Source of the DNA: a virus
DNA: 64,000 bases
Reading direction: 5' to 3' (one strand)
Virus record (IMG/VR): IMGVR_UViG_3300037516_000306
Location: 49,563-113,562 of that record
Shown here one piece after another: positions 674-60,136 of this stretch. Below the pieces are notes generated by a model. It was not told where the DNA came from and did no database searches. It worked only from the letters and a program-made list of their open reading frames with translations. Both the position numbers and the translations under genes were made by a program. Numbering within the stretch: position 1 is the stretch's first letter; each line of letters opens with the position of its first letter.

Positions 674-2236
674 TTAGAATTGTGGGATTTCCTCGATCAA
701 CACAGTTCTAGATAAATCTTCAATAAATACATCACATCTGTCTTTCATCCAGATTTCGTATCCTGGGAATTTATTAGCAGAACTCATACCTTGAGATTTA
801 GCAAAACCTAAGTGGTGACGAGTACCATCAATATAACCCCATGTCATAGAAGGAGCACCTTTCATACGTACTTCTCTAATGTTGTTTACCATTGATCCAT
901 CAGACATTGGAGAAACATCAAACACCATAAATACTGGAGTAGATTTTTTGTTTTGTCCAAACTCTAAGTTAGATTGTGGTAAATCTAATTCTTTTAAGTG
1001 AATCAATTCAACACGTCCAGTCTCACGAGTTACCATTGCATCAAATGCAAAGTTGTAAGTGATGTGTTGTCCTTCTCCTTGCATATATCTGTTTCCAGAA
1101 TCAGCCATGAAAGTAAGACCTGAATTTAATGCATCTGTTTTTAAAGCTTGTTGGAATACATCGAATCCAGCTTCATTAGTATACATCTTAACACTTCTAT
1201 CTTTTACATCCACTCTTCTGTAGAATAAATCTCCAAATACAGAACGGATTAAGTTAGCAGAGAATTCACCTCTGTTATATTGTACTAAGTTTCCATTGTT
1301 TCTCATTCTGTGGTATACACCAGCAGATGTTCTTTTCAATTCTTGTTTAGAACCATTAGTTTTAACTGTACCTGGTTTAGCCCAGATCATACGTTTAACT
1401 TTCAACTCTAACATAGATTTACGCATCCAGAACTCAATGAACGGTTCCCATTTAACATCATTACGAGTTAAAGGTAATTGGTTACGTCTTTGTGGAGCAT
1501 AAACTAAGATGTCTAATGGTTTACCAGAAGAATCTCTCATCATTTTATCATCAGCCCATTCAGTGATTTTGTGCTCATATCCATATGCAGAACCTAAAGA
1601 TTCGAACATTGTGATTTGCTCACCTAATCTTGGAAGACCTAATAAGTCTTGATCAAACTCACCAATAGCAGCATCAACTAATTCTAGTTCTACACCATAT
1701 TGTAAGAAGATAGGATTAACAAAATCAACTTGTGGATTATCACTTACTAATGTAAATGTATACAAGTAACCCATGTTCCATGGCTGAGGATCTTTGATTA
1801 CATAGAATCTAGGACCGTACTGACGAGTACCTACAGAAATGATTGCATTTTTAGAGAACTCATTAGTATCTAATATTAAAGAGAACTCTTGACCATCAAT
1901 ACCAGTTTTTCCAGCTAAGATAAGATCTTGCGTAGAAGTAGGGATGTCAATGATTTTTGGGAATTTGTAAGGAACAGCGATTTGCCATTTCCATGCATCA
2001 CTATTATTATCAATGTAATAAGGTGTGCTTTTGTTGATCATGTCTAGGAAGTCATTACTATACAATGAGCTCTGAGTATATAAAGAAATGATTTTCTTGT
2101 CATAATCAGCAGGCTCAGTAGAGTGAAAACTTTCCAAGTGATTTGAGTCAGTAAGTTTTCCTACCGCACGTTTGTCCATAGACGCTACACGAGCATAAGT
2201 AAAACCTGTTAAACCTGGGATTGTTTGAATTGCCAT
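674..2236 (-). CDS. Major capsid protein (crAss-like)
   Basis: 520 aa; position in terminase-portal-scaffold-MCP order; size and sequence character resemble crAss-like MCPs. Confidence 0.88.
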   Translation of the reverse strand: MAIQTIPGLTGFTYARVASMDKRAVGKLTDSNHLESFHSTEPADYDKKIISLYTQSSLYSNDFLDMINKSTPYYIDNNSDAWKWQIAVPYKFPKIIDIPTSTQDLILAGKTGIDGQEFSLILDTNEFSKNAIISVGTRQYGPRFYVIKDPQPWNMGYLYTFTLVSDNPQVDFVNPIFLQYGVELELVDAAIGEFDQDLLGLPRLGEQITMFESLGSAYGYEHKITEWADDKMMRDSSGKPLDILVYAPQRRNQLPLTRNDVKWEPFIEFWMRKSMLELKVKRMIWAKPGTVKTNGSKQELKRTSAGVYHRMRNNGNLVQYNRGEFSANLIRSVFGDLFYRRVDVKDRSVKMYTNEAGFDVFQQALKTDALNSGLTFMADSGNRYMQGEGQHITYNFAFDAMVTRETGRVELIHLKELDLPQSNLEFGQNKKSTPVFMVFDVSPMSDGSMVNNIREVRMKGAPSMTWGYIDGTRHHLGFAKSQGMSSANKFPGYEIWMKDRCDVFIEDLSRTVLIEEIPQF

Positions 2237-40600: not shown

Positions 40601-40882
40601 ATGGCTAAATTATTAGGAAACCGCATCTATTTAGAGATGCCAAAGAAAGAAGAGAGTAAGCTTATCGTAGATGAGAATACAAAAGAATCTCTAGAAAAAG
40701 AAATGTTAAAGAAAATGAACAAGCTTAAAGTTCACAGTGTTGGTACAGCTAACATGGATGTTAAAGTGGGTGATGTTGTTCTTGTAGATCCAGCAGCTTT
40801 ATCAAAAGCTCCATTAATCCCTTTATCAGATGATGAGCAAGTGTTACTTGTATCTCCATTTGATATTATTCAAATCTGGTAA
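40601..40882 (+). CDS. groES: GroES-like co-chaperonin
   Basis: LLGNRIYL, VHSVG, VKVGDVVL, DII; start ATG 40601. Confidence 0.65.
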   Translation: MAKLLGNRIYLEMPKKEESKLIVDENTKESLEKEMLKKMNKLKVHSVGTANMDVKVGDVVLVDPAALSKAPLIPLSDDEQVLLVSPFDIIQIW

Positions 40883-40883
40883 T

Positions 40884-41648
40884 ATGGAACAGAAAAAAGT
40901 AGGTATAGTAATTCTTGCAACTAACGCATACTTTGTGTTAGGTGTAAACTTTATGAGAAAGTTCTCGCATCATTATAAGGGTGATGCAAAGATCACTTTT
41001 TATTTCTTCTCAGACACAGACCCTAAAGAGTATATAACAGATGACATGGATGTGCAATATATACATCAGACACATGATACCTGGATGAATGCTACTAATT
41101 CTAAATTTATTAATATGCTGTCATTAGAAAACTGTGATAGTGACTATTTAATATATGTAGATGCAGATACTAGTGTATCTAAAGATTTTACTGAAGAATG
41201 GTTCATTGGTGATACTGTAGGACTAGAACATTTTGGAAACAATGGATGGATGAAAGACGTGAAGGGTTATGATAGAAATCCAAGATCTAAAGCTTATGTT
41301 CCTTATGACACTCAATTATTCCAGATGTATTATCATGGATGTTTGTTTGGAGGTAAGAAAGATAAGATGATGGAAGTGTGCAAAGTGCTACGTGATAATC
41401 AAATTGAAGACAAAAAGATTCCATACGAACCAGGAGTGAATGATGAGAGTTACATCAACCAGTATTATCACTACAATCCACCTACACTAACTGTATATTT
41501 AGACAAGTATATGTTTAATGTTAGTGATAAATGTGGAATTGAGCATAACAGAGATGTTAATTTCAGTGTAGAGGATTTGAAAAAAGAGATGTTAGCTAAT
41601 AGAAACAACTTATATGACTTACAAAATGGTAAGTTAATAGTGAGATGA
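40884..41648 (+). CDS. Glycosyltransferase, GT6-like (ABO/alpha-1,3-Gal transferase family)
   Basis: IVILATNAY, YFFSD, DADT (DxD), DRNPRSKAYVP, YYHGCLFGG, NDESYINQY; start ATG 40884. Confidence 0.8.
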   Translation: MEQKKVGIVILATNAYFVLGVNFMRKFSHHYKGDAKITFYFFSDTDPKEYITDDMDVQYIHQTHDTWMNATNSKFINMLSLENCDSDYLIYVDADTSVSKDFTEEWFIGDTVGLEHFGNNGWMKDVKGYDRNPRSKAYVPYDTQLFQMYYHGCLFGGKKDKMMEVCKVLRDNQIEDKKIPYEPGVNDESYINQYYHYNPPTLTVYLDKYMFNVSDKCGIEHNRDVNFSVEDLKKEMLANRNNLYDLQNGKLIVR

Positions 41649-42958
41649 TATCAAGTTATAGAACTATAGATAATGGTACTAGTATAGAGTATAAAAACTT
41701 ATATTCTATACAGGGTACCATTTATTTTTTAGCACTAGATGATGTAGATTTACCATACGTAAAGAAGTTTACTATATCATATCATTGGAAACCAACTGTC
41801 ATGAAGTTTAATTCTGAAGAAGAGCTTAATGCTTATGTTCAGAACTTACATAATGTGACAAGTATAGATCTATCAGTGCTATCTGACAACTTATGGTATG
41901 GAAATGTAGGACATGGATTATTTGATTGTCTTTATCCTATCTACTTATCACTATTGAAGTTTGGATATGTAGATGAACCATTCACTTATCTTTCTACAGA
42001 TTGGTCTTGGAGAGAGAACATGATGTATGATACAATCAAAGCATTTACTAAACAAGACTTATTAGAATACCCAAAGCTAGATAAAGACTATCATTTTAAA
42101 ACGTTAATTGCAGGAACAGAACCTGCAGGTAATAGAGTACAGAATAAAGAAGTCTTTATATATGGTAAGGAGTGGGATGGTTTACAGCAGTTCAAAAGAA
42201 GAATTTTTGAAGTGCACAACATTGCTATTGATAAACCTATCAATGAGATTCCCAAAGTTATAGTTATTAACAACAAACGTTTTGATCATAATAATCTAGA
42301 AGTAATAAATACAGTGGTTAAACGTATGTCTAGTGTATGTGATATAAAGTTTGTCGATTGGTATCATGACTACAGACGTTCTGGAAATCCAAAATTTGTA
42401 GATCAGATGAGAGATTTCCAAGATGTAGATATACAAGTAACTTCACCTGGAACAGCAATAATGTATTTACCACTAATGAAGAAAGGAGCAGTGAGTGTTA
42501 ACCTTGGATTCATAGAGCATACACAAACCAATGGTGTTAGAGGAAATCTTAAGATATTAGAATCTAAACATGCAGATCATTTAATTCCTGCATATATGGA
42601 ACAACCTATATGTGCTGGAACTTATTATGTTACATCGTTATATTACGATAGATATAAACATAATAATTTAGAAGTTGAGCCCCTAATAGATATAATCAAT
42701 GAGGCAATTCAAACACTTAAGTCTGGACAAATTACTGAAGGTAATGTAGCAAAAGATGGTGAAGTGTTTAGAGAGTATTGTAAAAGAGCACAAGATGGTG
42801 ATGCGTTATGTAAATTCTTAACAGAAGCATCTTTACATGTTGAATTCTTTGTTAATGAACATCCTTATGCAATGCTACCTAGTACAGACATAGAATTACT
42901 TAGATTAATAAAAAATGAATTAAATTATGACAGAAATTACGAAATCCACTTGGACTAA
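41645..42958 (+). CDS. Glycosyltransferase, GT61-like
   Basis: NVGHGLFD, FVDQMRDFQDVDIQVTSPGTA resembling GT61 Q..F...D.....HGA motif; ATGA-coupled to GT6. Confidence 0.55.
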   Translation: MISSYRTIDNGTSIEYKNLYSIQGTIYFLALDDVDLPYVKKFTISYHWKPTVMKFNSEEELNAYVQNLHNVTSIDLSVLSDNLWYGNVGHGLFDCLYPIYLSLLKFGYVDEPFTYLSTDWSWRENMMYDTIKAFTKQDLLEYPKLDKDYHFKTLIAGTEPAGNRVQNKEVFIYGKEWDGLQQFKRRIFEVHNIAIDKPINEIPKVIVINNKRFDHNNLEVINTVVKRMSSVCDIKFVDWYHDYRRSGNPKFVDQMRDFQDVDIQVTSPGTAIMYLPLMKKGAVSVNLGFIEHTQTNGVRGNLKILESKHADHLIPAYMEQPICAGTYYVTSLYYDRYKHNNLEVEPLIDIINEAIQTLKSGQITEGNVAKDGEVFREYCKRAQDGDALCKFLTEASLHVEFFVNEHPYAMLPSTDIELLRLIKNELNYDRNYEIHLD

Positions 42959-43583
42959 TACTGTAGGAGGTATTGAATTAACATTCGAAGACATAGCTAC
43001 ATCAAACACTGTACCTTTTGTTTTTGGAGAACTAATATCAGATTATTATGGATTAGAAAAAATCCAGTTATCTGAGAACGATATTGTTTTAGATATAGGT
43101 GCTAACGTAGGAATGTTTTCTATATACGCAAAGAAAAAGTTTGGATGTAGAGTTATTGCATTTGAACCAGTGCTATCTAACTTTGAGCAGTTTCAGAAGA
43201 ACATCATCTTAAATGGTTTATCTCTATCAGATATTGAGCTACACAATACAGCTATAACAGATGTAGAAGGTGGTGAGATTAAAATAGGTACTCCAAAAGA
43301 TAATACAGGAGGATCTTCTGCATTCTACCATACACATGATATGCCTATATGCAAGACAGAAACAATTAACAAGTACATAACAGAAGGTTGTGTGTACTTA
43401 AAGATAGATTGTGAAGGAGGGGAATATGCTATCATCCCTACAATATTAGATAAGCTTAATCAGTTTAAATATATAGGAATTGAATATCATAAATTCTCTG
43501 CAGAACAAGATCCAATAGCTTTACATAAGTCAATAGAATCTGCATTCAATGGAGAGATATTCTACAAAGAATATGGTACATAA
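42927..43583 (+). CDS. FkbM-family SAM methyltransferase
   Basis: VLDIGANVG, IAFEP, LKIDCEGGE, IEYH. Confidence 0.9.
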   Translation: MTEITKSTWTNTVGGIELTFEDIATSNTVPFVFGELISDYYGLEKIQLSENDIVLDIGANVGMFSIYAKKKFGCRVIAFEPVLSNFEQFQKNIILNGLSLSDIELHNTAITDVEGGEIKIGTPKDNTGGSSAFYHTHDMPICKTETINKYITEGCVYLKIDCEGGEYAIIPTILDKLNQFKYIGIEYHKFSAEQDPIALHKSIESAFNGEIFYKEYGT

Positions 43584-44738: not shown

Positions 44739-45262
44739 TATTTCTTAGATTTAGCTTTAATTTTCTTCTCTTGTACTAACATTTGTTTAGTAGGTTTTTT
44801 TCCACTACCTTTATTAGCTCTTATGTTATCCCATAATCCACGTTTAGAATATGAACCATCAGCACGCTTTAACATACCGCCATTCTTTTTTGCTGTTCTT
44901 AAAGAATCAGCTGGACGAGTTAGAGCTTTATCATTTGCTAATTCTTGAGCAAAATTCATATTAGGAGAAAGAGCTTCATATGTTGCATTTCTACCACCTA
45001 CATTTTTAGTAACTTGAGCTTTATAATTTTTTCCTTCTTTAAAGAATTTTACTCCTATAGGATTAGTAGTCTTTGTTGTTGTTGTTGAAGCAGCTCCAGA
45101 TTTAGCTTTCTTTATCTTACCACCAGATTTTAATGTGCTTCCTTTAAATGGACCTTTCTTCTTAATAAGAGGACCATTAGGAACAGGTGTTATCTTACCA
45201 CCCTGTTTTAATACACCAGGGCCTACATAAGCTACAGCTTTTTGAGGATTTAACTTAGACAT
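44738..45262 (-). CDS. Lys-rich protein with KxGG repeats
   Basis: LKQGGKI, LKSGGKIKKAKSG, KKNGGML. Confidence 0.65.
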   Translation of the reverse strand: MSKLNPQKAVAYVGPGVLKQGGKITPVPNGPLIKKKGPFKGSTLKSGGKIKKAKSGAASTTTTKTTNPIGVKFFKEGKNYKAQVTKNVGGRNATYEALSPNMNFAQELANDKALTRPADSLRTAKKNGGMLKRADGSYSKRGLWDNIRANKGSGKKPTKQMLVQEKKIKAKSKK

Positions 45263-45864
45263 TATTTCTTTTTATTAGATTTAGCAATCTTCTTGAATGT
45301 TTTAGCAAGAGCTTTAGCTCTACCAGTACAACCAGGTTTAGTGATTGGTGTACATTTACCAGCAGTACCACGCTTCTTAATAGAAGCTGCAGCTTTCTGC
45401 ATCCACATACCATCTTTAGCTTTTGATACAGTTGCTCCTGATTTAGCTTTCTTAACTGTACCACCTGCACGTTTAGAACATGCTCCTCCTTTACAAGGAG
45501 ATTTAGGTCCATTATCTTTAGCCCAAAAAGTTCTTTCACTTTTAGGTTCAGGATTGTTACGAGCATTTTTCATCCCTCTTTCTGATTCAGCATTCATCCA
45601 TTCATCAAAACTCAAACCAGGTTTTTGGAATCCTTTTGAAGGATCTTTAACATAACTGTTATAACTACCTAATTGTACAGCTCTAACATTTTCTCTTTTT
45701 GTTTTAGGAACACTTGTTAAACGTGTTTTATCTGAAGAAGTAAGTTCACGAGCAATTGGCTTCATCTCTACTGTAGTTCCAGCTGGAGTAAGTGTTGATA
45801 CAGATTTTACAGGAACTCTTTTACCAGTCTGTGCTTTCTTAATAGGTTTCTTAACAGTAGCCAT
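45262..45864 (-). CDS. Lys-rich protein with KKAQ/xGG motifs
   Basis: KKAQTG, KRAGGTVKKAKSG, KAKDG. Confidence 0.65.
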   Translation of the reverse strand: MATVKKPIKKAQTGKRVPVKSVSTLTPAGTTVEMKPIARELTSSDKTRLTSVPKTKRENVRAVQLGSYNSYVKDPSKGFQKPGLSFDEWMNAESERGMKNARNNPEPKSERTFWAKDNGPKSPCKGGACSKRAGGTVKKAKSGATVSKAKDGMWMQKAAASIKKRGTAGKCTPITKPGCTGRAKALAKTFKKIAKSNKKK

Positions 45865-45866
45865 GA

Positions 45867-46193
45867 TTACTTCTTTTTAGACATCTTGGTAGCACCAAGT
45901 TGTTTGTCTGCTGTAAGCTTAGCTTTACCTTTAGCACCAGCTAATGTTTTCTTTTGTACTTTAGTCCAAGCACCTTTAGGATCGATGCCCTTATCTCTTT
46001 TATTAGAAGCTGTAAGTCCAGTTAAAGAACCACCGTTCTTCATTTTCTTTTTAAGAGGTGCTAATGTAGTAATTCCTCTTTTTAATTTTTCATTTTCAGT
46101 TAATTGAAGTCCTCCTTTTTTAAGATTATCTTCTTTAGCTTTTTTAACTGGATTAGTTTGATAACTGTTCTGTGCTTTTTTAATTGTTGCCAT
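45867..46193 (-). CDS. Lys-rich protein
   Basis: MATIKKAQ, MKNGGSL. Confidence 0.6.
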   Translation of the reverse strand: MATIKKAQNSYQTNPVKKAKEDNLKKGGLQLTENEKLKRGITTLAPLKKKMKNGGSLTGLTASNKRDKGIDPKGAWTKVQKKTLAGAKGKAKLTADKQLGATKMSKKK

Positions 46194-47442: not shown

Positions 47443-47676
47443 TTAAACTGTTGTAGTTGTAGTTGTGGTAGGTGCTACCGTAGTACTAGTTGTAGTAGTA
47501 GGAGCAGCTGTTGTTGTTGTTGTTGTTGTGTAATTACAACACTCTTTAGCATCTATTTCTTGATAGTTACCAACCTTTGGTTTAAATGCTTGTACAATTA
47601 AACTACTTGGTATAATACGTCCTGAACCATCAAAACGTACAAAAGCTTTTAGCTTGTTATTATTATTACTTCTCAT
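47443..47676 (-). CDS. Tag-A + poly-Thr micro-protein (77 aa)
   Basis: MRSNNNNKLKAFVRFDGSGRIIPSSLIVQAFKPKVGNYQEIDAKECC followed by Thr-rich tail; start ATG 47676. Confidence 0.75.
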   Translation of the reverse strand: MRSNNNNKLKAFVRFDGSGRIIPSSLIVQAFKPKVGNYQEIDAKECCNYTTTTTTTAAPTTTTSTTVAPTTTTTTTV

Positions 47677-47678
47677 GA

Positions 47679-47858
47679 TTACGCAGGTGTTGTGGTTGTT
47701 GTTGTTGTGGTAAGGAAACAGCACTCATATGCTTGTATCTCTTTCCATTTTCCTACTTTTGGCTTATTTTTTCTGAGGATTAAGCTTCCTGCAACTATTC
47801 TGCCAGATCCATCGAATCTAACATAAGCCTTTAAAGGTCTTGAATTAATGCTTCCCAT
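47679..47858 (-). CDS. Tag-A + poly-Thr micro-protein (59 aa), not in ORF track
   Basis: MGSINSRPLKAYVRFDGSGRIVAGSLILRKNKPKVGKWKEIQAYECCFLTTTTTTTTPA. Confidence 0.75.
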   Translation of the reverse strand: MGSINSRPLKAYVRFDGSGRIVAGSLILRKNKPKVGKWKEIQAYECCFLTTTTTTTTPA

Positions 47859-47892
47859 TTCTTTTTTTTAATTTATGGTTAATAGTTTAGGT

Positions 47893-49179
47893 TTAACAAG
47901 GGTTATTTAATGTGGTTAGTCCTACTTGCCAGTAGTTTGTACCACCACAGTTTAATATTTTATTTGAGCTACCATTGGTAGTAGTTTTATATGTAATAGA
48001 TGCTGGATCTACATAGCCTTTAGCTGTTCCATCCCAAGCTTCTATACCTAGTTCTGATGCCACTCTATCAATTCTATTTGCATATCCATAAAACAGTATA
48101 TCAGGAATAGGAGGACTTTGTGCTCCAGCAAATACTAATCCAATTATTTTTCTTACACCACCAAAATCAGCAATCAATGCAGATCCTGAATCACCACCTG
48201 CTACTGGATAAGCACAAATAGTTGATAAACTAGGATCATTCTCTGGTTTAACATATACTATTTGATCATTAAACTGGCAAACCCCAATTCCTCCTTGTAA
48301 CTTATATTGTAAATATGTTGATGAAAATAAAGAAAATATTCTCATTGGACAACTAACACCACCTTTAGGTCCTGTAGTTCTACCAGAACTATATATCATT
48401 GGGTTATAATAAGGTGATCCTACAGTAAGCATTCCATCAATCTCTGCTGTAGAAGCAAATGGAAGAGGTTGATTGTAACTAACTCCAGCCTGTTGATATG
48501 ATGTTGCTATATTAACATCTGCAGCTTCTAAAGAGAATATTGCACCATCTACATAATTAATTCCAGTGGTTTGTTTAACAATAGGAACATATCTTAATGA
48601 TTGTCCTACTATATAAGCAGGGTCAGTAGGAATAGATAAGAACTCACCATTTTGATATACATAATCTATTGGAGAATATTCATTCTTAATAACACCAGTT
48701 AAATTTCTTTCTGATGTATAGAATGCATCTTGTATTATAACGTGGTTATTAGTAACACCTACTAATGTTTGTGTTTCTGTATGCACTCCTATGAATCCCA
48801 TAGTTCCTACAAAACCAGCTAGATTAGTTGATGTAATTGACAACCCACCTTTTAATGGTCTTGTGAAAGCTCTATTAACAGCTGAATTAGGTCCAGCTAT
48901 TTGTCCACATACAGCATTACATGCTAATAATTCTGCCTTACCTATTCTAAATACATCTGTTTTTAACACTTGATCTCCTACAGTTATCTCACTAGGTAAG
49001 ATTTCTTCAGGAGATAATTCAGATAGGGGTTTTTTCTCTTCAACACCATATATAATACAAAGCTCATTGGTTTGTTCACCACCAATAAACTTGAATCCAT
49101 AAGAAACATTGTTAATACCAGGAGTTGTTTCAGCTAATTCCTGTACTTTTAATTTTATATTTTCAATATTATTTTCCAT
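47893..49179 (-). CDS. Trypsin-like serine protease, paralog 2
   Basis: TNNHV, VDGAIF, GRTTG, GDSGS. Confidence 0.8.
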   Translation of the reverse strand: MENNIENIKLKVQELAETTPGINNVSYGFKFIGGEQTNELCIIYGVEEKKPLSELSPEEILPSEITVGDQVLKTDVFRIGKAELLACNAVCGQIAGPNSAVNRAFTRPLKGGLSITSTNLAGFVGTMGFIGVHTETQTLVGVTNNHVIIQDAFYTSERNLTGVIKNEYSPIDYVYQNGEFLSIPTDPAYIVGQSLRYVPIVKQTTGINYVDGAIFSLEAADVNIATSYQQAGVSYNQPLPFASTAEIDGMLTVGSPYYNPMIYSSGRTTGPKGGVSCPMRIFSLFSSTYLQYKLQGGIGVCQFNDQIVYVKPENDPSLSTICAYPVAGGDSGSALIADFGGVRKIIGLVFAGAQSPPIPDILFYGYANRIDRVASELGIEAWDGTAKGYVDPASITYKTTTNGSSNKILNCGGTNYWQVGLTTLNNPC

Positions 49180-49192
49180 TGAAGTTATTTTT

Positions 49193-50461
49193 TTAACAAG
49201 GATTATTTAGTGTTCCAGTAAATCCTACTTGCCAGTATTCTTTTGTATCGCACGTTAGTGTTTTGTTTGAACTTCCTCCAGGCACTGTTTTATATTCAAT
49301 AGATGGAAGATCTACAACAGTTTTTGGTAATGTATTGTCCCATCGTTCAATTCCTAATTGAGTTGCTATTTCATCTATTCTACAAGCCCATCCATATATT
49401 GTATTTCCATTAGCATCTTCACCACCAGCAAAATTTAATCCTATCACTTTGATAGTACCATCTATATCTGCTAATAATAAAGATCCTGAATCTCCAGGTC
49501 TAATTGGATTAAAACATTGAGGAACTTGAGCAGTTGGTGTAGCTGGATCAGGTTTAACAAATACGATGCAATTAGTAAATACACATTGTGTAGGTACACC
49601 TTGTAATTTAAAATTAACTAATGTGTTTCCACCAACTTGATAAATAGTTAATGGACACAAAGGACCACCTTTAGGACCTGTTGTTCTTCCTGAACTATAT
49701 AGTTGTGGATTAGTAGAATATAAATTATTGATTTCTGCTGTTGTAGCAAAAGGAGGATTTTGTGTTAGTGATAAACCAACTTGATCCCAAGAAGAATCTA
49801 AATCAATTACATCTGCACTTAATGAAAATATTGCAGCATCCACTTGATTTGTTCCTGTACCAAATTTTACAATTGGTACATATCCTAAACTTTGTCCAAT
49901 TACATCAGCTGAATTAGGCACGTTTGGTTCAGTGTTTTGATAAACAACATTAGCAGGAGTGTATTCATTCTTTAATATACCACTTTGATTTCTCTGTGAT
50001 GTATAAAATGCATCCTGTATAGTTACGTGGTTGTTTGTAAGACCTACAATAGCTCCACTTTGAGTGTGTTTAACTAAACAACCTATTGTTCCTCTTTCTG
50101 GATATTTATTAGATGTTGTTATAGATAGAGCTCCTTTGATTGGTCTTGTATAAGTTCTATTAGGAATAGAATTTACACCATTATCTTCACCACATCCAAC
50201 ATTACAAACAAGTGAGTTCACTGCAAAGATTTCAACTATATCAGTTTTAATTACATCTTCACCTATTTGAATTTCTGAAGGAATTATTTCTTCTGGAGAC
50301 AAATCAACAATAGCTTTTTTCTCTTTTAATTGATAAATTATAGCTGAGTCTCCTGTAACTTCACCATTTGAAATCTTAGGCCCATAACCAATAGATATAG
50401 CATCAGGATATAAATCCCTTAACTCATCTATCTTATTTAATATTTCATTTGTTAATTGCAT
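49193..50461 (-). CDS. Trypsin-like serine protease, paralog 1
   Basis: TNNHV, VDAAIF, GRTTG, GDSGS; colinear with paralog 2. Confidence 0.8.
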   Translation of the reverse strand: MQLTNEILNKIDELRDLYPDAISIGYGPKISNGEVTGDSAIIYQLKEKKAIVDLSPEEIIPSEIQIGEDVIKTDIVEIFAVNSLVCNVGCGEDNGVNSIPNRTYTRPIKGALSITTSNKYPERGTIGCLVKHTQSGAIVGLTNNHVTIQDAFYTSQRNQSGILKNEYTPANVVYQNTEPNVPNSADVIGQSLGYVPIVKFGTGTNQVDAAIFSLSADVIDLDSSWDQVGLSLTQNPPFATTAEINNLYSTNPQLYSSGRTTGPKGGPLCPLTIYQVGGNTLVNFKLQGVPTQCVFTNCIVFVKPDPATPTAQVPQCFNPIRPGDSGSLLLADIDGTIKVIGLNFAGGEDANGNTIYGWACRIDEIATQLGIERWDNTLPKTVVDLPSIEYKTVPGGSSNKTLTCDTKEYWQVGFTGTLNNPC

Positions 50462-50472
50462 ATTATTTTATA

Positions 50473-52149
50473 TTATGGTGTTACTCCTTGAAAATACGTA
50501 AATATTGTATTAACGCCTGGTACTATCGTTGTGGTGCTAGTAGTTGGAGGGAAAAGTGTAGTAGTTGATGTAGTTACTGCAGGATCATCAAAACATCCTA
50601 ACCATATTGGTCCACCGTTTCCACAATTTGTACCTGATAATGTCACTTGAGTATAGTCAGATGGAGCAGTTATAACAAACTCTCCACTTCCTCCACCATA
50701 GAATTGACCATCAACTGTAAATAATTCATTTCCAATAATGTTTACAAAACAACTTGTATTTGCTGTAATAGTTGGTGTACCACCATTTGTTGTAAATCTA
50801 AAATCATCATTTCCATCTAACACACCAAATCTAAATGCAACGTTATTAACTGGAACTGGGAACGTTAATGTATAATCAAATGCTGGAGTGTCTAATGTAC
50901 AACTTCCTGTATTTCCACCAGCAACCATAGTAGGTGTACTTCCTATAGAAACTCCACTACAAGAATAAGTTTCATTAGCATATCCTGCAGGTCTAGTACC
51001 TTGAAAAATAACACTACTAGCTTGAACAGTCATTCCTGAATAAGTAAAATTAACTGGACCAATATATGGACCATTAAGAGTTGTTCTTAATTCTGGTAAT
51101 GATGTAGGTGTACAATTAGGAGCAAACCCTTCGAAGTCTATATTTGCACAACCTCTTGATGACCAGAAAGTTTGTGTATCAGAATATCCTAAATTACTTT
51201 GTAATAAACTAATACCATATGTTGAACTTTGAGCAACTTCATATATATCAGAAGTTTCTGGATTAACTAAATATGCAATTCCGTTCCATCCAAATAAATC
51301 AAATGCTTTTCTTCCAGTATAACCAGGGGTGAAATCAATTGTATTTTGTATACGAATTGCACCTATCATCGGTTGCCAATAAACAGCATTAATAGGATTA
51401 GGTAATCCTGCATATTGTCTAATGAAATTACCAACATTAACATTATTAGTTACGAAATTCTGTCTAGCACTAAGTATAACATTTCCTGAATTTGTATAAA
51501 TAATACCTGTAATTTGTGAATCTGCACCAAAATCATTACCAAGAGTTAAACTTCTACTAGCTATTGCATTATCACGTATAATTTCAACAGAAGGACTACT
51601 TATATCCCAATAACCAACTCTTATTAGAGAAGCAGTAATGAAATTATCTCCTAATAATATAGTGGTATCATCTATAGCAGCAATTACACTTGGAGTACTT
51701 TCACTAGCACCAAAGCTATTAACACGAATATTTCTAACAAAGGTAAGACCTAATGTATCTTGCATTATATCCCACTCCTTAATTGTATTTGCTCCATCAC
51801 CAATCCACAATTTATTATTTGTGGAAGCTTGCATTGTAATTCCTGTAGGTGTAGCAAAGTCATTTGGTACTGATATACTAACTGTTGTATTTGATACAAC
51901 ATCATAAACATCTATTGAACCAACTGTATCTATATCTCTAGACCAGACACAAGGTGATGCGCTTGGGAAAGCCAATGTAGTTGTAGTAGTAGTAGTAGAT
52001 GAAGTAGATGTGGTACTACTAGATGTTGTACTAGTGGTAGATCCACAACCTCCACTTCTAATACAGATTAGTTCTTCTAATTGCTTAGAGATCTGCCAAA
52101 GAAGATTGGTTCTTGTACTTCCACCTATTTGTCTACTTGGTATAGCCAT
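50473..52149 (-). CDS. Tag-B + Ser/Thr linker + large beta-rich domain(s)
   Basis: MAIPSRQIGGSTRTNLLWQISKQLEEL, then STTSTTSSSTTSTSSTTTTTTT; second Thr-rich tract near C-terminus. Confidence 0.75.
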   Translation of the reverse strand: MAIPSRQIGGSTRTNLLWQISKQLEELICIRSGGCGSTTSTTSSSTTSTSSTTTTTTTLAFPSASPCVWSRDIDTVGSIDVYDVVSNTTVSISVPNDFATPTGITMQASTNNKLWIGDGANTIKEWDIMQDTLGLTFVRNIRVNSFGASESTPSVIAAIDDTTILLGDNFITASLIRVGYWDISSPSVEIIRDNAIASRSLTLGNDFGADSQITGIIYTNSGNVILSARQNFVTNNVNVGNFIRQYAGLPNPINAVYWQPMIGAIRIQNTIDFTPGYTGRKAFDLFGWNGIAYLVNPETSDIYEVAQSSTYGISLLQSNLGYSDTQTFWSSRGCANIDFEGFAPNCTPTSLPELRTTLNGPYIGPVNFTYSGMTVQASSVIFQGTRPAGYANETYSCSGVSIGSTPTMVAGGNTGSCTLDTPAFDYTLTFPVPVNNVAFRFGVLDGNDDFRFTTNGGTPTITANTSCFVNIIGNELFTVDGQFYGGGSGEFVITAPSDYTQVTLSGTNCGNGGPIWLGCFDDPAVTTSTTTLFPPTTSTTTIVPGVNTIFTYFQGVTP

Positions 52150-52159
52150 TATTAATATT

Positions 52160-52954
52160 TTAAATGTCTTTTATAAATCGAATTGATAGTCCATACCCAT
52201 TGTATCCATTAACTTTAAGTAAATCGGAACGATTGGTATTTAATGAGTAAATATAAGAATCTCCTTGACCAAATGGAGTAGGATCTAAAGGATTATCTGG
52301 TGTATTAGTAGTTGCACTCCAGTATTGTCCTATTACATTAATCAACTCAAAATTTATCCATCCAGGTGCTGGAATAGTTTGCCAATAATAATCTTTTCTA
52401 CCACCAGGAATACCTGAAAAACCACTAGTATTTGTACCATTTATAAAAGGAACAAAAGGTACAGTATTAGTTGACCAATAACCTGTATTATCTGTTAAAT
52501 TTCCTGTCATTCTCATAGGAAGTCCAGCTATAGCCATACCACCTAAACATTCAGCTAATGCTTCCCAATCATCATTAGTTGGAACACGATATCCTTCAGG
52601 TGCAAGACCTCTTGGATCAGTTACAGCATAGTGATTATATAGTTTACCATATATAGGACCATTAGCAGGATCGTTATTATAATAGCACCAAGCACCTGTT
52701 CTTAAATAAGCCCAAGCTGCAGGATCTGTTACTTGTGGAATAGGATCTCCATTTCTATATGTTGTACCATCAAAGTTTTCAAATGTCCAGTTCTCCATAC
52801 AAAACGTTGAAGGTTGAGGACATAAATTATCACAGCATAAGTCATAAGGTATTTGTTCCCAAACTCCTACTTTAGGAGATTGTTTTTGAAGAACAAGGCT
52901 TCCTGCTACTGCTTTATTATTTGCATAGCGGACATATGCTTTTAAATTTCCCAT
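52160..52954 (-). CDS. Tag-A + Fibrobacter succinogenes major paralogous (FISUMP-like) domain
   Basis: LKAYVRY..GSLVL..PKVGVWEQI..LCC, then W..EN..YRNGDPIP, YGKLYN, LAPEGYRVPT, GLSIRFIKD. Confidence 0.78.
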   Translation of the reverse strand: MGNLKAYVRYANNKAVAGSLVLQKQSPKVGVWEQIPYDLCCDNLCPQPSTFCMENWTFENFDGTTYRNGDPIPQVTDPAAWAYLRTGAWCYYNNDPANGPIYGKLYNHYAVTDPRGLAPEGYRVPTNDDWEALAECLGGMAIAGLPMRMTGNLTDNTGYWSTNTVPFVPFINGTNTSGFSGIPGGRKDYYWQTIPAPGWINFELINVIGQYWSATTNTPDNPLDPTPFGQGDSYIYSLNTNRSDLLKVNGYNGYGLSIRFIKDI

Positions 52955-53970
52955 TAATAGTCTAATTTATATTTGTCTTTTATTTCTTTTAGCTTAGTAG
53001 CATAAAAAGATGTGCAATATTTCTTTGATTCTTCATGATCAATGATCATTTCTAAGTTAGGATCTTTTGTAGGATCAGTTCCCATGTGATACTTCCCTTT
53101 ATAGAAAGCTGGGTAACCATTTCCTGTTTCAGAAACTATTCCTGCATTATGAAAGATTGTATGTGTATCAAGTTTTGTGATAGGATCTGTAGCCCATGCA
53201 AAAGCCATTTCAGGAACCACCTTTGTTTCTTGGTCTCTCAACCAAATGTTCCAAAGAACAGCCCACATATCAGCACACCAGCTTTGGTATCCAGCATTTT
53301 CATCTTTAAAGTATTCTCTATTCACTGTTTGTAAATAGCTTCTTATAAGAATGCAATCATTCATCACCTTACTCCAGAAGTCACCATCTACATTCTTTAA
53401 TAGATATTGTGCTCCTCCTGAATGATCATTATTAGCTTCGCAAACTTCTCTGCTTATTCCTACAACACTTGCAATTTCTGCAAGGATGTCTCTGTTTTTA
53501 TATTCTTCCAGTTTCTCTGGTAAGACTTGATTAATTTTACTATCAAAATACTTAGCGTTTATATAACTATTTGTATCTGATAGATAGTTAACATCATCTT
53601 CCAAAAATTGATCCACATTGAAATCTTTCATAAAAAGAATATCTGAATCACAATAGAAGATTGCTTTCTCACTTAGCTCTGGGTGTTTCTTGAAGTGTTT
53701 CCAAAGAACATAAGGTCTAAGTACAGGAATATAAATTCCTAACAATCGATTTAAATCATCCTCATCCTCGTAGTAATGAAACTCACCTTCTGGATATAGG
53801 TCTTCTATCTGTTTCCATTTATTTCTATTCTCTCTTCCTTTAGGAGTGAATATCAAATTGATTGCTTTATCAGAATGTCCTATTTCTTTTAGGCTTTCCA
53901 TCCAAAGGTTCACTTGCCATGTGTAATAAACGTCGCTAGGGCAAGCTTGTACAAATTTTAAATCTTTCAT
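52954..53970 (-). CDS. GT-A glycosyltransferase, candidate peptide O-glycosyltransferase
   Basis: YYTWQ, RPYVL, FYCDSDIL (DxD), GGAQY, WCADMWA, IFHNAG; start ATG 53970. Confidence 0.65.
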   Translation of the reverse strand: MKDLKFVQACPSDVYYTWQVNLWMESLKEIGHSDKAINLIFTPKGRENRNKWKQIEDLYPEGEFHYYEDEDDLNRLLGIYIPVLRPYVLWKHFKKHPELSEKAIFYCDSDILFMKDFNVDQFLEDDVNYLSDTNSYINAKYFDSKINQVLPEKLEEYKNRDILAEIASVVGISREVCEANNDHSGGAQYLLKNVDGDFWSKVMNDCILIRSYLQTVNREYFKDENAGYQSWCADMWAVLWNIWLRDQETKVVPEMAFAWATDPITKLDTHTIFHNAGIVSETGNGYPAFYKGKYHMGTDPTKDPNLEMIIDHEESKKYCTSFYATKLKEIKDKYKLDY

Positions 53971-54001
53971 AATGTAGTTGGTTTTAATTTTGATTTTATT
54001 A

Positions 54002-54331
54002 TTATAGACAAGGTCCATCTAGTATCAATGTTCCTAATGAAACAATAGGAACAGTTGAAGAACAAAAAACGCTAGGTTGGAATTCAGCTGGTAGAGTTTG
54101 TATTGTAGGTATATACACTTCACATTCAGTATATTCTAAAGTTACTATAGTAGATGGGTCAATAAGACTAATATCATAAATCCATCGATCACAAGTAGCT
54201 ATAGTGGTAGTAGTTGTTGTTGTACCACATCCACCAGCAGTTACACAAGTTAAATGTTGTAACTGTTTAGATATTTGCCAAAGCAAGTTAGCTCTTCCAC
54301 TCCATCCAATCTGTCTACTAGGTATTGCCAT
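54002..54331 (-). CDS. Tag-B + poly-Thr + small Cys-containing domain
   Basis: MAIPSRQIGWSGRANLLWQISKQLQHLTCVTAGGCGTTTTTTT. Confidence 0.75.
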   Translation of the reverse strand: MAIPSRQIGWSGRANLLWQISKQLQHLTCVTAGGCGTTTTTTTIATCDRWIYDISLIDPSTIVTLEYTECEVYIPTIQTLPAEFQPSVFCSSTVPIVSLGTLILDGPCL

Positions 54332-54343
54332 TTCTTTAAATAA

Positions 54344-54484
54344 TTATGGAGTTGTAGTAGTTGTAGTGGTAGTAGAATTTAAACTCTTAGCAGTTACATT
54401 AATAAGTAACTCTAATTGTTTAGAGATTTGCCACAACAGATTTTCTTCTGTTCCCCAGCCTATCTGTCTTGATGGTATAGCCAT
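54344..54484 (-). CDS. Tag-B + poly-Thr micro-protein (46 aa), not in ORF track
   Basis: MAIPSRQIGWGTEENLLWQISKQLELLINVTAKSLNSTTTTTTTTP. Confidence 0.75.
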   Translation of the reverse strand: MAIPSRQIGWGTEENLLWQISKQLELLINVTAKSLNSTTTTTTTTP

Positions 54485-54507
54485 GACTTTAAATTTTATT
54501 TATTATA

Positions 54508-54515
54508 CAAAAATA
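54508..54515 (-). promoter_or_regulatory. TAnnTTTG promoter box at head of the tag/poly-Thr operon
   Basis: Minus-strand TATTTTTG about 24 nt upstream of ATG 54484. Confidence 0.45.
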
Positions 54516-56514: not shown

Positions 56515-56695
56515 AATAATTTTAAGGATATTTTTATAACATACAGGAAGTTTTAAAAATTCAATAGGGTATAACTATTTACGTACAAATATAAAATTTA
56601 TATTTGGAATAATGAAAGACTGAAAATATATTTCCAACATAATATAGCATAATATAAATATATTTTTTATACCTTTGATTTCAAAATCAAATACC

Positions 56696-59600
56696 ATGCC
56701 TTATAGTTTTACCTACTTCAAAGAAGAAGTAAAAGAATGGTTCGTACAAAACGTTCCAACTAGTAAAAGAATACTAGATGTAGGCCCAGGAATAGGGACC
56801 TATTCAAATCTATTGCGTTCATTAGGATATAGAATGGATGCTGTAGAAATCTATGAACCATACATAGATAAGTATGAACTCAGAGATAAATATGATAATG
56901 TCTTTATAGGAAGCATTATTACATTTGATATCAATGATTATGACTTCATTATTCTAGGAGATGTGTTAGAACATATTCCTACAAACTATGCAAAGGAGTT
57001 AATCAGAGATATTGTAACTGCTAAGAAAGAATGTTTGGTAGCTATACCATATGAAATGGAACAGGGAGAACATGAAGGTAATATTCATGAGACTCACTAC
57101 CAACCAGATCTTACACACGAAGTGATGTTCGAGAGATATCCTGATCTATCTTGTATATATAGAAATGAATACTATGGGTATTATACGTACACACATATAA
57201 AAGAGGAAAAAATGTACGTATTATATGCAACTGCATCTTATTATGATGTTGTATGTATGGCTGTAAAGAGTCTTAATAAGGTGAGTGATATTCCTGTGCT
57301 AGTGTATATGCTAGATGATTATAGAGAAGTGCCTGGTGCATACACTGTATGGTGGAAGTGTGATATTGAAGACTTACCCAAAGGAACTTACATAGATAGA
57401 AACAAGAGTGATGTATATAAGTTATTGATCCAAAGACCTCTTATAGTTAAAGATGCTCTTGAAAGATTTGCAAAGACTATTTGTTATGTAGATTCTGATT
57501 CTATAGCTACTAAGTATGTAGATAGAATATTCAACTACTATCCTAAAGATTCTAAGTATCCATATTTTACTGAAGGTATTTATGATTACTTACACAATAA
57601 TGGTAGAGGAGGAGCTGAGAGTGTACAAGATCTTTCTACAACATTAGAACATCCAGCATGTGAGTTGTTTGGTGTAAATCAATACATAAGAAATAGATAC
57701 AGACAAACTGGTTACTTTGTAGCTGGTCAAAACACTATACCATTCTTAGATGAGTGGAGCTGGATGTGTAATCACCCAGAGGTGTTAAAGAATCCTCAAT
57801 ACTATGCTCCCTATCACGAAGAGACAATAGTTAATGTTCTTCTATGGAAATATAAATGCTTAAAGGGTCTTCCTTATATATACACTAATGCTAGCTATGA
57901 TAAGTTAGATAGGATATATAATGAAGATAATTGGGGTAAACATGTAGAGTCTTGGTTTAAGTTACCAGAGACTGAACAAGATCTATTGTTCTTACATGGA
58001 GAGAAACATCCTGTTATAATGTCTAAAATGATATCTAAAATGTCTAAACGTTTGAGAATAATGTTTCTTGCTCCTCACCTGTCAACAGGCGGTATGCCTC
58101 AGTTTCTTCTTAAAAGGATAGAGACATTGAAGGATTATACAGACGTAGAAATCTTTGTTGTAGAATATCAATGCCATAGTTTAGACTTTGTTGTACAGAG
58201 AGATCAGATCATGGACATTGTACCTGTACATACATTATATGAAGATAAGATGGAACTGTTTACAATTATAGATCATTTTAAACCTGATGTTATCCATATA
58301 GATGAAATGTCTGAGAGACTTGATAGAGAGATGATCGTATCATTATACAATCATAACAGATCATATCGTATCATTGAAACTTGTCATGATGTATCTTTTG
58401 TACCAGAAACTAAGATGTTTACACCAGATGCTTATGCATTCTGTAGTTCTTATCATTTAGATACATTTGCTAACCTTGATGGATATAAACAAGTAGTTGA
58501 GTATCCTATAGATTATAATCCTATAAATGATATTCAGAAAGTTGGTGGACAGATAGCACTTGGAATGGATAGATCAAAGAAGCATGTTGTAAACATAGGA
58601 CTTTGGACTAGAGGAAAGAACCAGGGAGAAGGACTAGAAGTAGCTAGACAGATGCCAGATGTACATTTCCACTTTGTAGGTAACCAAGCTGGAAACTTCA
58701 AAGACTATTGGGAACCACTAATGAAAGATGTTCCTGAGAATGTTACTATATGGGGAGAGAGAAATGATGCAGATGTATTTATGAAAGCTGCAGACTTGTT
58801 TATGTTTAACTCTACATGGGAATGTAATCCGCTAGTGTTAAGAGAAGCTATCAGCTATGGTAAACCTATACTAGCTAGAAACCTTCCTCAATATAAAGAC
58901 ATGTTCACTAAGTATATAACTAATCTAAATCCTATTATGATAGTACCACAGATAACAAGTATATTAGCAACTCCTGTAAATTATCCTATACCAATTGATA
59001 ATCCATCTATATTCTTTGCTAAGAATAACTTAAACTTGTATAAGCATGCAATGTCTGTTATTCCACACAAAAACATTGTAAATGATTATAATATCATACA
59101 GCACTTTGTAGGCCAACCATTCTTAGAAATAACTGGTACATCTACTAGTGACTTTCGTGTAGAGTTTTATGATGGTGAACAATTAGTTCATTCTGATGCT
59201 ATCAAATGTAACCACTGGATAAAACTTGCTAGAGAGTATTACACACAGTGGAGAACTGTTGTGTATAAAGATGGAGAAAAGGTGTATGATAAACTTCTAG
59301 ATCTAGAAGGTAAGAGAGTGTACATCGCTTTTGAGAGCTCTTCTTTAGGAGATACAATAGCTTGGATGCCATATGTATTAGACTTCAAAGTGAAGCATCG
59401 CTGTGATGTGATTGTAAGTACATTCAAGAACTTCTTATTTGAATCTGCATATCCAGAGCTTGAGTTTGTTGATCCAGGAACCAATGTAACTAATATATAT
59501 GCTATGTATAAGATTGGTTGGTTTTATAATGTAAACAGAGAACCAGAACTACCAAATACTATTCCTCTTCAGCAGACAGCTACAAACATTCTAGGTCTTC

Positions 59601-60136
59601 CTTATGAAGAAGTTAAACCAAGAATTGTAAACAGTAGAGTGTGTCTTACATTAAAGCAAGTTGCAATAGCTACTAATTCCACTGCAGGATGTAAGTTCTG
59701 GACCAGAGAAGCTTGGCAAGAGGTAATTAACTACTTACATGGAGAAGGATACAAAGTGATAAATACATCATTAGAAAAGAATCCATTTGACAACTGTCAA
59801 GGATTACTTGACAACTCAATGACTAACACTATGACTACTATATACAATAGTAGATTCTTTATAGGACTATCTAGTGGACTAAGCTGGTTAGCTTGGGCAT
59901 TAGATGTACCAGTGATTATGATTGCTAACTTCACTGATGCCAATCATGAGTTTGAATGCCATAGGCCAGTGAATACAAATGTGTGCCATGGATGTTGGAA
60001 TGATCCACAATATACATTTGATAAAGGAGATTGGGATTGGTGTCCTGTATTTAAAGGAACAGAGAGGCAATTTGAATGTCAGAAAAGTATAACACCAAAC
60101 ATGGTAATAGAACAAATAAAAAAGCTCCTTAAATAG
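56696..60136 (+). CDS. Four-domain enzyme: SAM methyltransferase + GT-A + GT-B (GT4-like) + TibC/Aah-like protein O-glycosyltransferase
   Basis: ILDVGPGIG; YVDSDS; FLAPHLSTGGMPQ and ECNPLVLREA; SSSLGDTIAW, FIGLSSGLSWLAWA, CHGCWN..WCP..FECQKSIT. Confidence 0.8.
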   Translation: MPYSFTYFKEEVKEWFVQNVPTSKRILDVGPGIGTYSNLLRSLGYRMDAVEIYEPYIDKYELRDKYDNVFIGSIITFDINDYDFIILGDVLEHIPTNYAKELIRDIVTAKKECLVAIPYEMEQGEHEGNIHETHYQPDLTHEVMFERYPDLSCIYRNEYYGYYTYTHIKEEKMYVLYATASYYDVVCMAVKSLNKVSDIPVLVYMLDDYREVPGAYTVWWKCDIEDLPKGTYIDRNKSDVYKLLIQRPLIVKDALERFAKTICYVDSDSIATKYVDRIFNYYPKDSKYPYFTEGIYDYLHNNGRGGAESVQDLSTTLEHPACELFGVNQYIRNRYRQTGYFVAGQNTIPFLDEWSWMCNHPEVLKNPQYYAPYHEETIVNVLLWKYKCLKGLPYIYTNASYDKLDRIYNEDNWGKHVESWFKLPETEQDLLFLHGEKHPVIMSKMISKMSKRLRIMFLAPHLSTGGMPQFLLKRIETLKDYTDVEIFVVEYQCHSLDFVVQRDQIMDIVPVHTLYEDKMELFTIIDHFKPDVIHIDEMSERLDREMIVSLYNHNRSYRIIETCHDVSFVPETKMFTPDAYAFCSSYHLDTFANLDGYKQVVEYPIDYNPINDIQKVGGQIALGMDRSKKHVVNIGLWTRGKNQGEGLEVARQMPDVHFHFVGNQAGNFKDYWEPLMKDVPENVTIWGERNDADVFMKAADLFMFNSTWECNPLVLREAISYGKPILARNLPQYKDMFTKYITNLNPIMIVPQITSILATPVNYPIPIDNPSIFFAKNNLNLYKHAMSVIPHKNIVNDYNIIQHFVGQPFLEITGTSTSDFRVEFYDGEQLVHSDAIKCNHWIKLAREYYTQWRTVVYKDGEKVYDKLLDLEGKRVYIAFESSSLGDTIAWMPYVLDFKVKHRCDVIVSTFKNFLFESAYPELEFVDPGTNVTNIYAMYKIGWFYNVNREPELPNTIPLQQTATNILGLPYEEVKPRIVNSRVCLTLKQVAIATNSTAGCKFWTREAWQEVINYLHGEGYKVINTSLEKNPFDNCQGLLDNSMTNTMTTIYNSRFFIGLSSGLSWLAWALDVPVIMIANFTDANHEFECHRPVNTNVCHGCWNDPQYTFDKGDWDWCPVFKGTERQFECQKSITPNMVIEQIKKLLK

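Follow-up and report, generated by a model that had tools for sequence, protein, structure and literature searches.

In Gram-positive bacteria, the serine-rich-repeat (SRR) adhesins are O-glycosylated in the cytoplasm, along long Ser/Thr tracts, by soluble glycosyltransferases (GTs; GtfA/B, GT8-type GT-A enzymes) before display. Hoc of phage T4 and other Ig-like capsid decoration proteins are non-essential and display adhesion domains, and Hoc binds the capsid via its C-terminal domain. Cryo-electron microscopy of phage PhicrAss001 revealed two kinds of hexon-centre pocket in its T=9 capsid (Bayfield et al. 2023, PMC10172136). Its fibres dock by short N-terminal segments, namely residues 1-38 of the head fibre trimer gp21 (HFT), residues 1-58 of the head fibre dimer gp29 (HFD) and, in the hub, residues 1-26 of the tail fibre gp22 (PMC10172136). 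In the mycobacteriophages Che8, Rita, Corndog and Myrna, phage GTs, of which there are several per genome, glycosylate the C-terminal ends of capsid and tail-tube subunits and so generate a glycan shield (Freeman et al. 2023, Cell Host Microbe 31:1216, as relayed by PMC11256854 and PMC12619734). Here we describe a nine-gene locus of an uncultured crAss-like phage that has features in common with these systems. The window analysed is a stretch of 64,000 nucleotides, the right-hand 64 kb (positions 49,563 to 113,562) of the 113,562-bp IMG/VR record IMGVR_UViG_3300037516_000306 (estimated completeness 98%), and the locus combines two N-terminal modules, which we call TagA and TagB, with threonine runs and an embedded GT gene. 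On balance, we favour reading the locus as a set of virion-docking anchors with O-glycosylated Thr stalks and variable adhesin tips, a combined mechanism in which we infer the docking and its site, and likewise the glycosylation and its chemistry.

The nine genes are encoded on the minus strand with very short gaps, running from 54484 to 47443. They comprise three TagB-headed proteins, three TagA-headed proteins, one enzyme of 338 amino acids (aa) and two probable serine peptidases. An earlier interpretation made from the letters of the DNA (the sequence-only reading) had proposed this run, and open reading frame (ORF) calls confirmed its gene order and positions. They also confirmed that three of the tagged proteins (46, 59 and 77 aa) consist of a tag plus Thr7-8 runs and have no further domain. 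The genes, from first to last, are as follows.

54344..54484, minus strand: 46-aa mini-protein, TagB (36 aa) followed by S-T8-P, with dozens of orthologues of near-identical format
54002..54331, minus strand: 109-aa protein, TagB followed by T7 and a small Cys-containing (Cys-rich) domain (ORF and tag alignment)
52954..53970, minus strand: 338-aa soluble glycosyltransferase of phrog_4417, with a predicted GT-A fold and an invariant D108-S109-D110
52160..52954, minus strand: 264-aa protein, TagA (41 aa, CC end) followed by a FISUMP lectin-like domain (PF09603, E 9e-32)
50473..52149, minus strand: 558-aa protein, TagB followed by a 22-residue S/T linker, a large domain and a C-terminal T-rich stretch (read from the sequence)
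49193..50461, minus strand: 422-aa probable chymotrypsin-fold serine peptidase, untagged and accessory (phrog_20754 'protease')
47893..49179, minus strand: 428-aa paralogue of the 422-aa peptidase, untagged and accessory (phrog_20754 'protease'; H146, D211, S331)
47679..47858, minus strand: 59-aa mini-protein, TagA (47 aa, ECC end) followed by T8 and PA (ORF and tag alignment)
47443..47676, minus strand: 77-aa mini-protein, TagA followed by T7-AAP-T4ST2-VAP-T7-V, with three T-runs (ORF and tag alignment)

TagB is a module of 36 residues (MAIPSRQIG...NLLWQISKQLE...) with 20 invariant residues in 36 columns among its three copies, and TagA a module of 41-47 residues (...LKAYVRFDGSGR...PKVG.W.EI...CC) with 15 invariant residues in 48 columns, also among three copies. 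All copies in the 113.5-kb genome fall within the locus. Confirmed matches in IMG/VR (174 for TagB and 227 for TagA) were far above chance and many are on contigs of 100-119 kb; the tag begins at residue 1-3 in nearly all of the approximately 390 unique proteins. Using a motif-anchored alignment, chosen because of indels in TagA, we obtained tag dN/dS values of 0.18-0.29, indicative of purifying selection, that were equal in mini-proteins and long proteins (up to 0.29 in the short forms). Neither tag has a match in Pfam. TagB resembles a short heptad-patterned helix, and the conserved spacing of L17/I20/L24/L27, read directly from the sequence, would suit a short coiled coil; TagA appears beta-strand-like with two Cys at its end. 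Behind the tag, the length of the pure-Thr run peaks sharply at 7, then 8, and the mini-proteins typically stop two to three residues past the run (xAP, P, V). The runs are written in mixed ACA/ACT/ACC codons, so selection is on the protein and not on a DNA repeat. These tags are real, selected N-terminal modules that are reused on many cargos.

The sequence-only reading had put the embedded enzyme forward as a candidate glycosyltransferase, and modelling agrees. Its AlphaFold2 (AF2) model (predicted local distance difference test, pLDDT, 87.9) is a single Rossmann-like GT-A domain (Foldseek E ~1e-6). VIA-align matched the model to glycogenin (Z 14.8, root-mean-square deviation 3.7 A over 230 residues), LgtC (Z 14.0), the catalytic domain of UGGT (Z 13.9) and the Skp1 alpha-galactosyltransferase (Z 13.6), and GT6 enzymes match as well. 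The DxD motif D108-S109-D110 is invariant in 25 close homologues, and together with 25 other residues it is kept in nine cultured-phage homologues at 28-35% identity. The start codon at 53970 yields the length of 338 aa common to all homologues. The family corresponds to phrog_4417, annotated as 'unknown function', and is a large one, with 2,713 matching clusters at 90% identity (837 at 50%). None of 25 family members matched any Pfam GT family up to E 10, and searches of the PDB sequences by phmmer and profiles returned noise for the GT, a peptidase, the tags and a 376-aa structural-module protein discussed below. ESM Atlas gave HPAT on 10% of one cluster, plus DUF7164, which is a weak lead to a possible likeness to plant HPAT/SGT1 enzymes. 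That the 338-aa enzyme would be a retaining GT-A glycosyltransferase of the metal-dependent kind (GT8/GT24/GT6-like) is well supported by the model and the comparative evidence. By analogy with the SRR adhesins, a soluble GT-A-type enzyme would act on Ser/Thr low-complexity tracts before surface display. The SRR systems are bacterial, use accessory Sec export and modify tracts of hundreds of residues, whereas the tracts here have approximately 7-30 residues, belong to phage particle proteins and involve no export; no signal peptides were seen on the tagged proteins, as judged by eye.

Evidence on the substrate comes from other phages. A tblastn search with the GT matched 77 cultured phages, mostly of Firmicutes, and three of these were scanned for Thr runs over their entire genomes. 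Enterococcus phage phiFL1A has just two Thr-run ORFs, which encode the major head and major tail proteins; each has a C-terminal poly-Thr tail, and the tail gene is directly followed by the GT gene. Lacticaseibacillus phage R9.1 likewise has only two, for its probable capsid protein and its probable tail protein, and here the GT directly follows the capsid gene. The only Thr-run ORF of Lactococcus phage bIL285 is the major tail protein, and there the GT comes after the major head gene and approximately 1.3 kb before the tail gene. A Thr-rich tract in the gene or reading frame immediately before the GT was also present in each of seven other phages sampled, namely Lactococcus 1706, Lactobacillus Semele, Staphylococcus DH5, Arcanobacterium TPWB06, Chryseobacterium MA9V-3, Enterococcus Planchet and Levilactobacillus ENFP1. 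Among random T9-coding loci from IMG/VR, the GT was found in five of 80, always immediately downstream of the Thr-run gene and in the same orientation, and TagA and TagB were absent from all five. The same GT/poly-Thr arrangement, again without tags, recurs in two additional, distant lineages of the GT (three loci, one on a 365-kb contig). Since the GT adjoins Thr-run genes in phages that lack the tags, it is tied to the Thr run and not to the tags, and since many of the runs form tails at protein ends with nothing to link, they are most simply read as acceptors of the GT. From these gene neighbourhoods, the Thr run, rather than the tag, is likely the recognition element of the GT, and we think it quite probable that the enzyme acts on the Thr runs. 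The proposed unit of tag, Thr run and GT is found within the crAss-like family, while elsewhere the GT travels with poly-Thr and no tags.

Closer inspection of Enterococcus phage Planchet (L176:8773-9000) showed a Thr-rich peptide in another frame, without a start codon, between the major capsid stop and the GT gene. It may be a frameshift or read-through extension that gives a Thr tail to a fraction of the capsid subunits. A similar Thr-rich frame lies behind the tail-tube gene in Staphylococcus phage DH5 and Arcanobacterium phage TPWB06.

These arrangements resemble mycobacteriophage glycosylation in that the GTs are phage-encoded, with several per genome, and in that the candidate acceptors in Firmicutes phages with the same GT are C-terminal ends of capsid and tail subunits. 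Unlike in mycobacteriophages, the acceptor would be a near-pure Thr7-8 run, the GT belongs to another family (phrog_4417) that adjoins its presumed substrates, and the host would be a member of the Bacteroidota. The runs of this phage are on anchor mini-proteins, fibre-like proteins and other structural-module proteins and not on the major capsid protein.

The Thr runs could instead be unmodified spacers or domain-shuffling joints, with the GT acting on phage DNA bases, host polysaccharide or a small molecule. Modification of DNA or O-antigen is common among phage GTs (general knowledge; PMC12619734), and the predicted GT-A fold alone would be compatible with a role on DNA or host polysaccharide; the gene, however, lies in the same structural module as a Thr-run gene, mostly adjoining it, in four unrelated phage groups. 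Many poly-Thr and PT linkers occur where there is no dedicated GT, and 75 of the 80 T9-coding viral loci have no GT nearby, so poly-Thr does not need the GT. A linker role fits poorly with the many runs that are terminal tails (those of the 46-, 59- and 77-aa proteins, of the muzzle protein and of Firmicutes phage head and tail proteins) and with a run length held at 7-8. Cargo families do swap between tags, as in shuffling at linkers, but several small cargo domains are joined directly to either tag with no linker at all, and the mixed codons make the runs poor substrates for recombination or slippage. We consider this explanation unlikely, and prefer the Thr runs as acceptors of the GT.

Turning to relatives of the phage, we found TagA, TagB and the GT together in 67 of the 68 loci of at least 15 kb, in agreement with the co-occurrence in viral metagenomes that the sequence-only reading had proposed as a check. 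The order [TagB genes]-GT-[TagA genes], with exactly one GT, was identified in all 63 complete related clusters. Both tag kinds are present in 62 of them and one has TagA only. The minimal cassette consists of one TagB-T7 peptide, the GT and two TagA-T7 peptides. Of 50 non-identical clusters, 48 encode a tagged protein with at least six consecutive Thr; the genes are separated by a median of 17 nt. The peptidases were detected in five of the 68 loci. Judged by this conserved core, the two peptidases, the protein with the FISUMP domain and the 558-aa protein count as accessory cargo. This corrects the suggestion that the whole run forms one system. Many long tagged proteins lack a Thr linker.

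The layout of the cassette, in which short peptides with a conserved 'leader' and a low-complexity 'core' flank a modifying enzyme, also recalls ribosomally synthesised and post-translationally modified peptides (RiPPs). The short tagged genes would then be precursors of RiPP-like or secreted glycopeptides, the tag a leader to which the GT binds and which the two peptidases remove, and the Thr run the modified core. Two peptidases are indeed present in the operon studied here, but they occur in only five of the 68 loci, there is no transporter or cyclase in the cluster, and the 'core' is invariant. The same tags also head proteins of 100-1295 aa with collagen, lectin and leucine-rich repeat (LRR) domains, and where the GT accompanies Thr tails of capsid and tail proteins, no such leader is present. 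We regard a RiPP-like origin as very improbable compared with N-terminal modules that carry cargo.

Our survey of long tagged proteins covered 215 unique sequences, the largest of 1295 aa, and distinguished at least 55 cargo families, eight of which were found on either tag. Recognisable cargos are collagen repeats, C1q, ConA-like lectin, FISUMP, Lcl_C, BspA-type LRR, ice-binding-like beta-solenoids, DUF4832/DUF4874 and a beta-carbonic-anhydrase-like domain. Among long proteins, 14 of the 118 headed by TagB continue with seven or more collagen-like (GXY) repeats, against none of the 97 headed by TagA, which implies that TagB forms homotrimers. In the locus itself, the FISUMP match spans residues 55-262 of the 264-aa protein (111 bits against a curated cut-off of 33.9), and this cargo has 40% identity with the FISUMP tip of a 537-aa structural-module protein. 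A segment of the 558-aa protein is common with a 525-aa muzzle-fragment protein (E 5e-7). The 109-aa protein has no Pfam or PHROG match.

Two cargos were noted in passing. The first, a domain of approximately 90 aa with a PKD-like WGDGTT motif and no Thr linker, is on TagA in some phages and on TagB in others (loci L023, L129, L074 and L077). The second is a TagA protein family of eight members with a beta-carbonic-anhydrase-like LCIB_C_CA domain (E 8.6e-18; L016:5507-6487, plus strand), an odd cargo for surface display.

The fibres of PhicrAss001 are the closest parallel to the tagged proteins. Both phages belong to the same virus order and have the same capsid protein family, and their N-terminal anchors are short (36 and 41-47 residues here against 26-58 residues). 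Both have two anchor types, one of them trimeric, and here both types are present in almost every genome. The gene for gp29 is located inside the lysis cassette of PhicrAss001, and lysis-type genes, including one for a DUF5675 protein, lie directly upstream of our operon. In contrast to PhicrAss001, the anchors here are reused on several genes per genome and on the at least 55 cargo families, there is no detectable sequence similarity between the two sets, and some genes encode only an anchor and a Thr run, with a GT embedded among them; we detected no GT (by tblastn) and no T7-coding tract in the 102.7 kb of PhicrAss001. The likeness is thus one of working in the same way and not of membership, because no sequence similarity was found. 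The sequence-only reading had cast the tags as docking modules, of which the conserved and reused N-terminal module stands as observed, and docking on the virion would follow by analogy and not by homology to the PhicrAss001 anchors. Given the PhicrAss001 anchors, the collagen repeats after TagB and the cargo domains common with structural-module proteins, the tags are probably virion anchors. That they sit in the hexon pockets specifically we propose only tentatively, on the same analogy. Display of adhesion domains on the surface is common to this locus and T4 Hoc; Hoc is one protein, whereas here two N-terminal anchors would be combined with interchangeable cargo and candidate glycan stalks.

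The presence of both tags in 62 of the 63 complete clusters would also be expected if the tags bind each other, and short N-terminal signals such as the capsid-targeting sequences of T4 (general knowledge) raise the further option that the tags direct cargo into the prohead for ejection, given that crassviruses do package cargo proteins (PMC10172136). Binding between the tags sits badly with the complete cluster that has TagA only and with the homotrimers implied by collagen after TagB. Neither variant suits the domains carried well, since these are of the extracellular adhesion or fibre type (collagen, C1q, ConA-like lectin, FISUMP, LRR and PKD-like), and glycan-type Thr tails make little sense within a capsid. 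Either variant strikes us as improbable, and anchors on the virion remain our preferred reading of the tags.

Seven further Thr-run proteins are encoded in this genome, all in its structural module. The crAss muzzle homologue (PF25731), which belongs to a proven class of virion proteins, ends in TTSTTTTTTP, and the 525-aa muzzle-fragment protein ends in T7AP. The 376-aa core protein (genome 47113-48243; L169:17514-18644, minus strand), encoded two genes past the capsid gene, has T8AP at its C-terminus. Its identity among more than 100 relatives is 83-95%, and the T7-8 xAP tail is conserved. Its assignment as the crAss auxiliary capsid protein, from gene order and an ESM Atlas lead (0.83), is a weak lead. 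Upstream of the window (genome 40464-42043) we observed a third N-terminal module of approximately 73 aa, 'TagC' (MTVLITLT...GPFNLYS.DGYV...). One copy is an 83-aa protein made of the module, T7 and LT (L169:10865-11116, minus strand), and another is a 436-aa protein made of the module, a long S/T linker and Cys-rich domains (L169:11134-12444, minus strand).

In the combined mechanism that we favour, TagB and TagA would plug proteins into fixed sites of the particle. The likeliest sites would be the two hexon-centre pockets of the T=9 capsid (one for a trimer and one for a dimer), the tail-fibre hub being less likely. Behind the anchor would stand a stalk, either collagen repeats (on TagB) or a run of approximately seven Thr that in some proteins recurs, spaced by xAP. 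The stalk may carry an optional tip (FISUMP, ConA-like, C1q, LRR or PKD-like domains). The cytoplasmic 338-aa GT would O-glycosylate the Thr runs before or during assembly, and its other targets would be virion proteins with T7-8 tails, such as the muzzle protein and the 376-aa core protein. The tag-only mini-proteins would be pure glycan carriers that fill the same sites. Further glycosyl- and methyltransferases of the phage may extend the glycan, and three candidates are encoded in the window.

40830..41648, plus strand: GT6-family glycosyltransferase, possible glycan extender (PF03414, E 9.5e-15; role proposed)
42927..43583, plus strand: FkbM-type methyltransferase, possible glycan capper (PF05050, E 3e-13; role proposed)
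56675..60136, plus strand: 1153-aa multi-domain enzyme with a methyltransferase, a GT-B (Glycos_transf_1) and a GT9-like domain (Pfam domains; role proposed)

A 437-aa protein described earlier as 'GT61-like' has no Pfam match.

Several results weigh against this mechanism, in addition to the 75 T9-coding loci and the versatility of the GT-A fold considered above. In approximately two thirds of the long tagged proteins, the tag is not followed by a Thr-rich linker. The co-occurrence of tags and GT comes from one syntenic phage family and is hence not independent evidence. Neither tag was found by tblastn in 50,697 cultured phage records, so no cultured phage among them has the tags. Tag profiles built from 166 and 167 sequences gave nothing above noise against the ORFs of PhicrAss001 and no PDB match below E 0.07. 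The major capsid protein of this phage has no Thr run. The auxiliary capsid role of the 376-aa protein is not borne out by its AF2 model (pLDDT 33, from a shallow alignment), by PF25650, which has no match in the genome, or by BLASTP, which gave no match to gp36 of PhicrAss001.

A bolder version of the same idea is that crAss-like phages of aquatic Bacteroidota possess a plug-in display system, in which two universal anchors would occupy the two T=9 hexon pockets, any anchored cargo would be displayed and a poly-Thr-specific O-glycosyltransferase would build a mucin-like coat, with the same GT family forming a pan-phage 'Thr-tag' system over phages of Bacteroidota, Firmicutes and Actinobacteria. 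In this full extent we find the proposal possible but doubtful. To our knowledge, mycobacteriophages are so far the only phages whose own enzymes have been shown to glycosylate the virion, and the cassette points to a different, very widespread GT family with a simple acceptor, a run of approximately seven threonines. We searched the literature on poly-Thr or virion glycosylation in non-actinobacterial phages and found no description; the link between the GT family and Thr7-10, the mini-proteins of anchor plus Thr run and the two-anchor combinatorial cargo display appear undescribed in the literature searched. If true, our reading would provide a sequence rule to predict sugar-coated phages across phyla, as well as minimal natural substrates of 46-59 aa for biochemistry. 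It would also provide a natural two-anchor display platform on crassvirus capsids, with a bearing on adhesion, evasion of immunity and defence, and engineering, and a function for phrog_4417 and for hundreds of 'hypothetical' mini-proteins in aquatic viromes.

The phage, of approximately 113.5 kb, was recognised as crAss-like by its crassvirus Pfam matches, which include a P22-like portal, crassvirus ring proteins 1 and 2 and the crassvirus muzzle protein (PF25731). The capsid protein that marks its virion type is encoded in the window.

674..2236, minus strand: crassvirus-type major capsid protein (PF23898, E 3e-28), without a Thr run

Megablast of the locus against the 50,697 cultured phage records gave no match. 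A search of 185,579 cellular species genomes with TagA returned a single match, in a metagenome-assembled genome (MAG) of Sediminibacterium sp. (contig JBBAJS010000010.1). This contig is phage-sized (111,986 bp) and bears the same TagB-GT-TagA-TagA layout, and so probably represents a phage genome that was binned together with its host or put in the wrong bin. The tags are thus phage-specific, as the sole cellular match of TagA is on a phage-sized contig with the same cassette, and Sediminibacterium is a weak host lead from this sequence, with other freshwater Chitinophagaceae as further candidates.

The two untagged accessory proteins of 422 and 428 aa had been called proteases from sequence. 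They are probably chymotrypsin-fold (PA clan) serine peptidases, to judge from residues H146, D211 and S331 (GDSGS), which are invariant in seven homologues and occur in the order His, Asp, Ser, and from the phrog_20754 'protease' match, which covers their N-terminal half. Neither protein had a Pfam match at E 0.1; around the nucleophile, a profile of 3C-type peptidases matched weakly (E 0.04).

Upstream of the first gene is a candidate promoter element, which the sequence-only reading had placed at the head of the operon.

54508..54515, minus strand: TATTTTTG, candidate Bacteroidota -7 box (TAnnTTTG), 24 nt upstream of the first gene, in an AT-rich intergenic region of approximately 100 nt

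The box is present as claimed, but TAnnTTTG is not enriched in the window (94 observed against 88 expected from shuffles), so it is weak promoter evidence. Scans for sigma-70 promoters and terminators found nothing above shuffles. In view of these negative results, the operon reading rests on gene packing.

Just downstream of the operon (window 44738-46193, minus strand), three adjacent Lys-rich basic proteins of 174, 200 and 108 aa have KKAKSG-type motifs in common. Finally, a similar C-terminal motif, G-V/I-x-T-I-F/Y-T-Y/H-F, was detected after a Thr-rich stretch in the 558-aa tagged protein (window 50473-50520, minus strand) and in a 387-aa structural-module protein (L169:15590-15640, minus strand); this common end may be a C-terminal docking or strand-insertion element.

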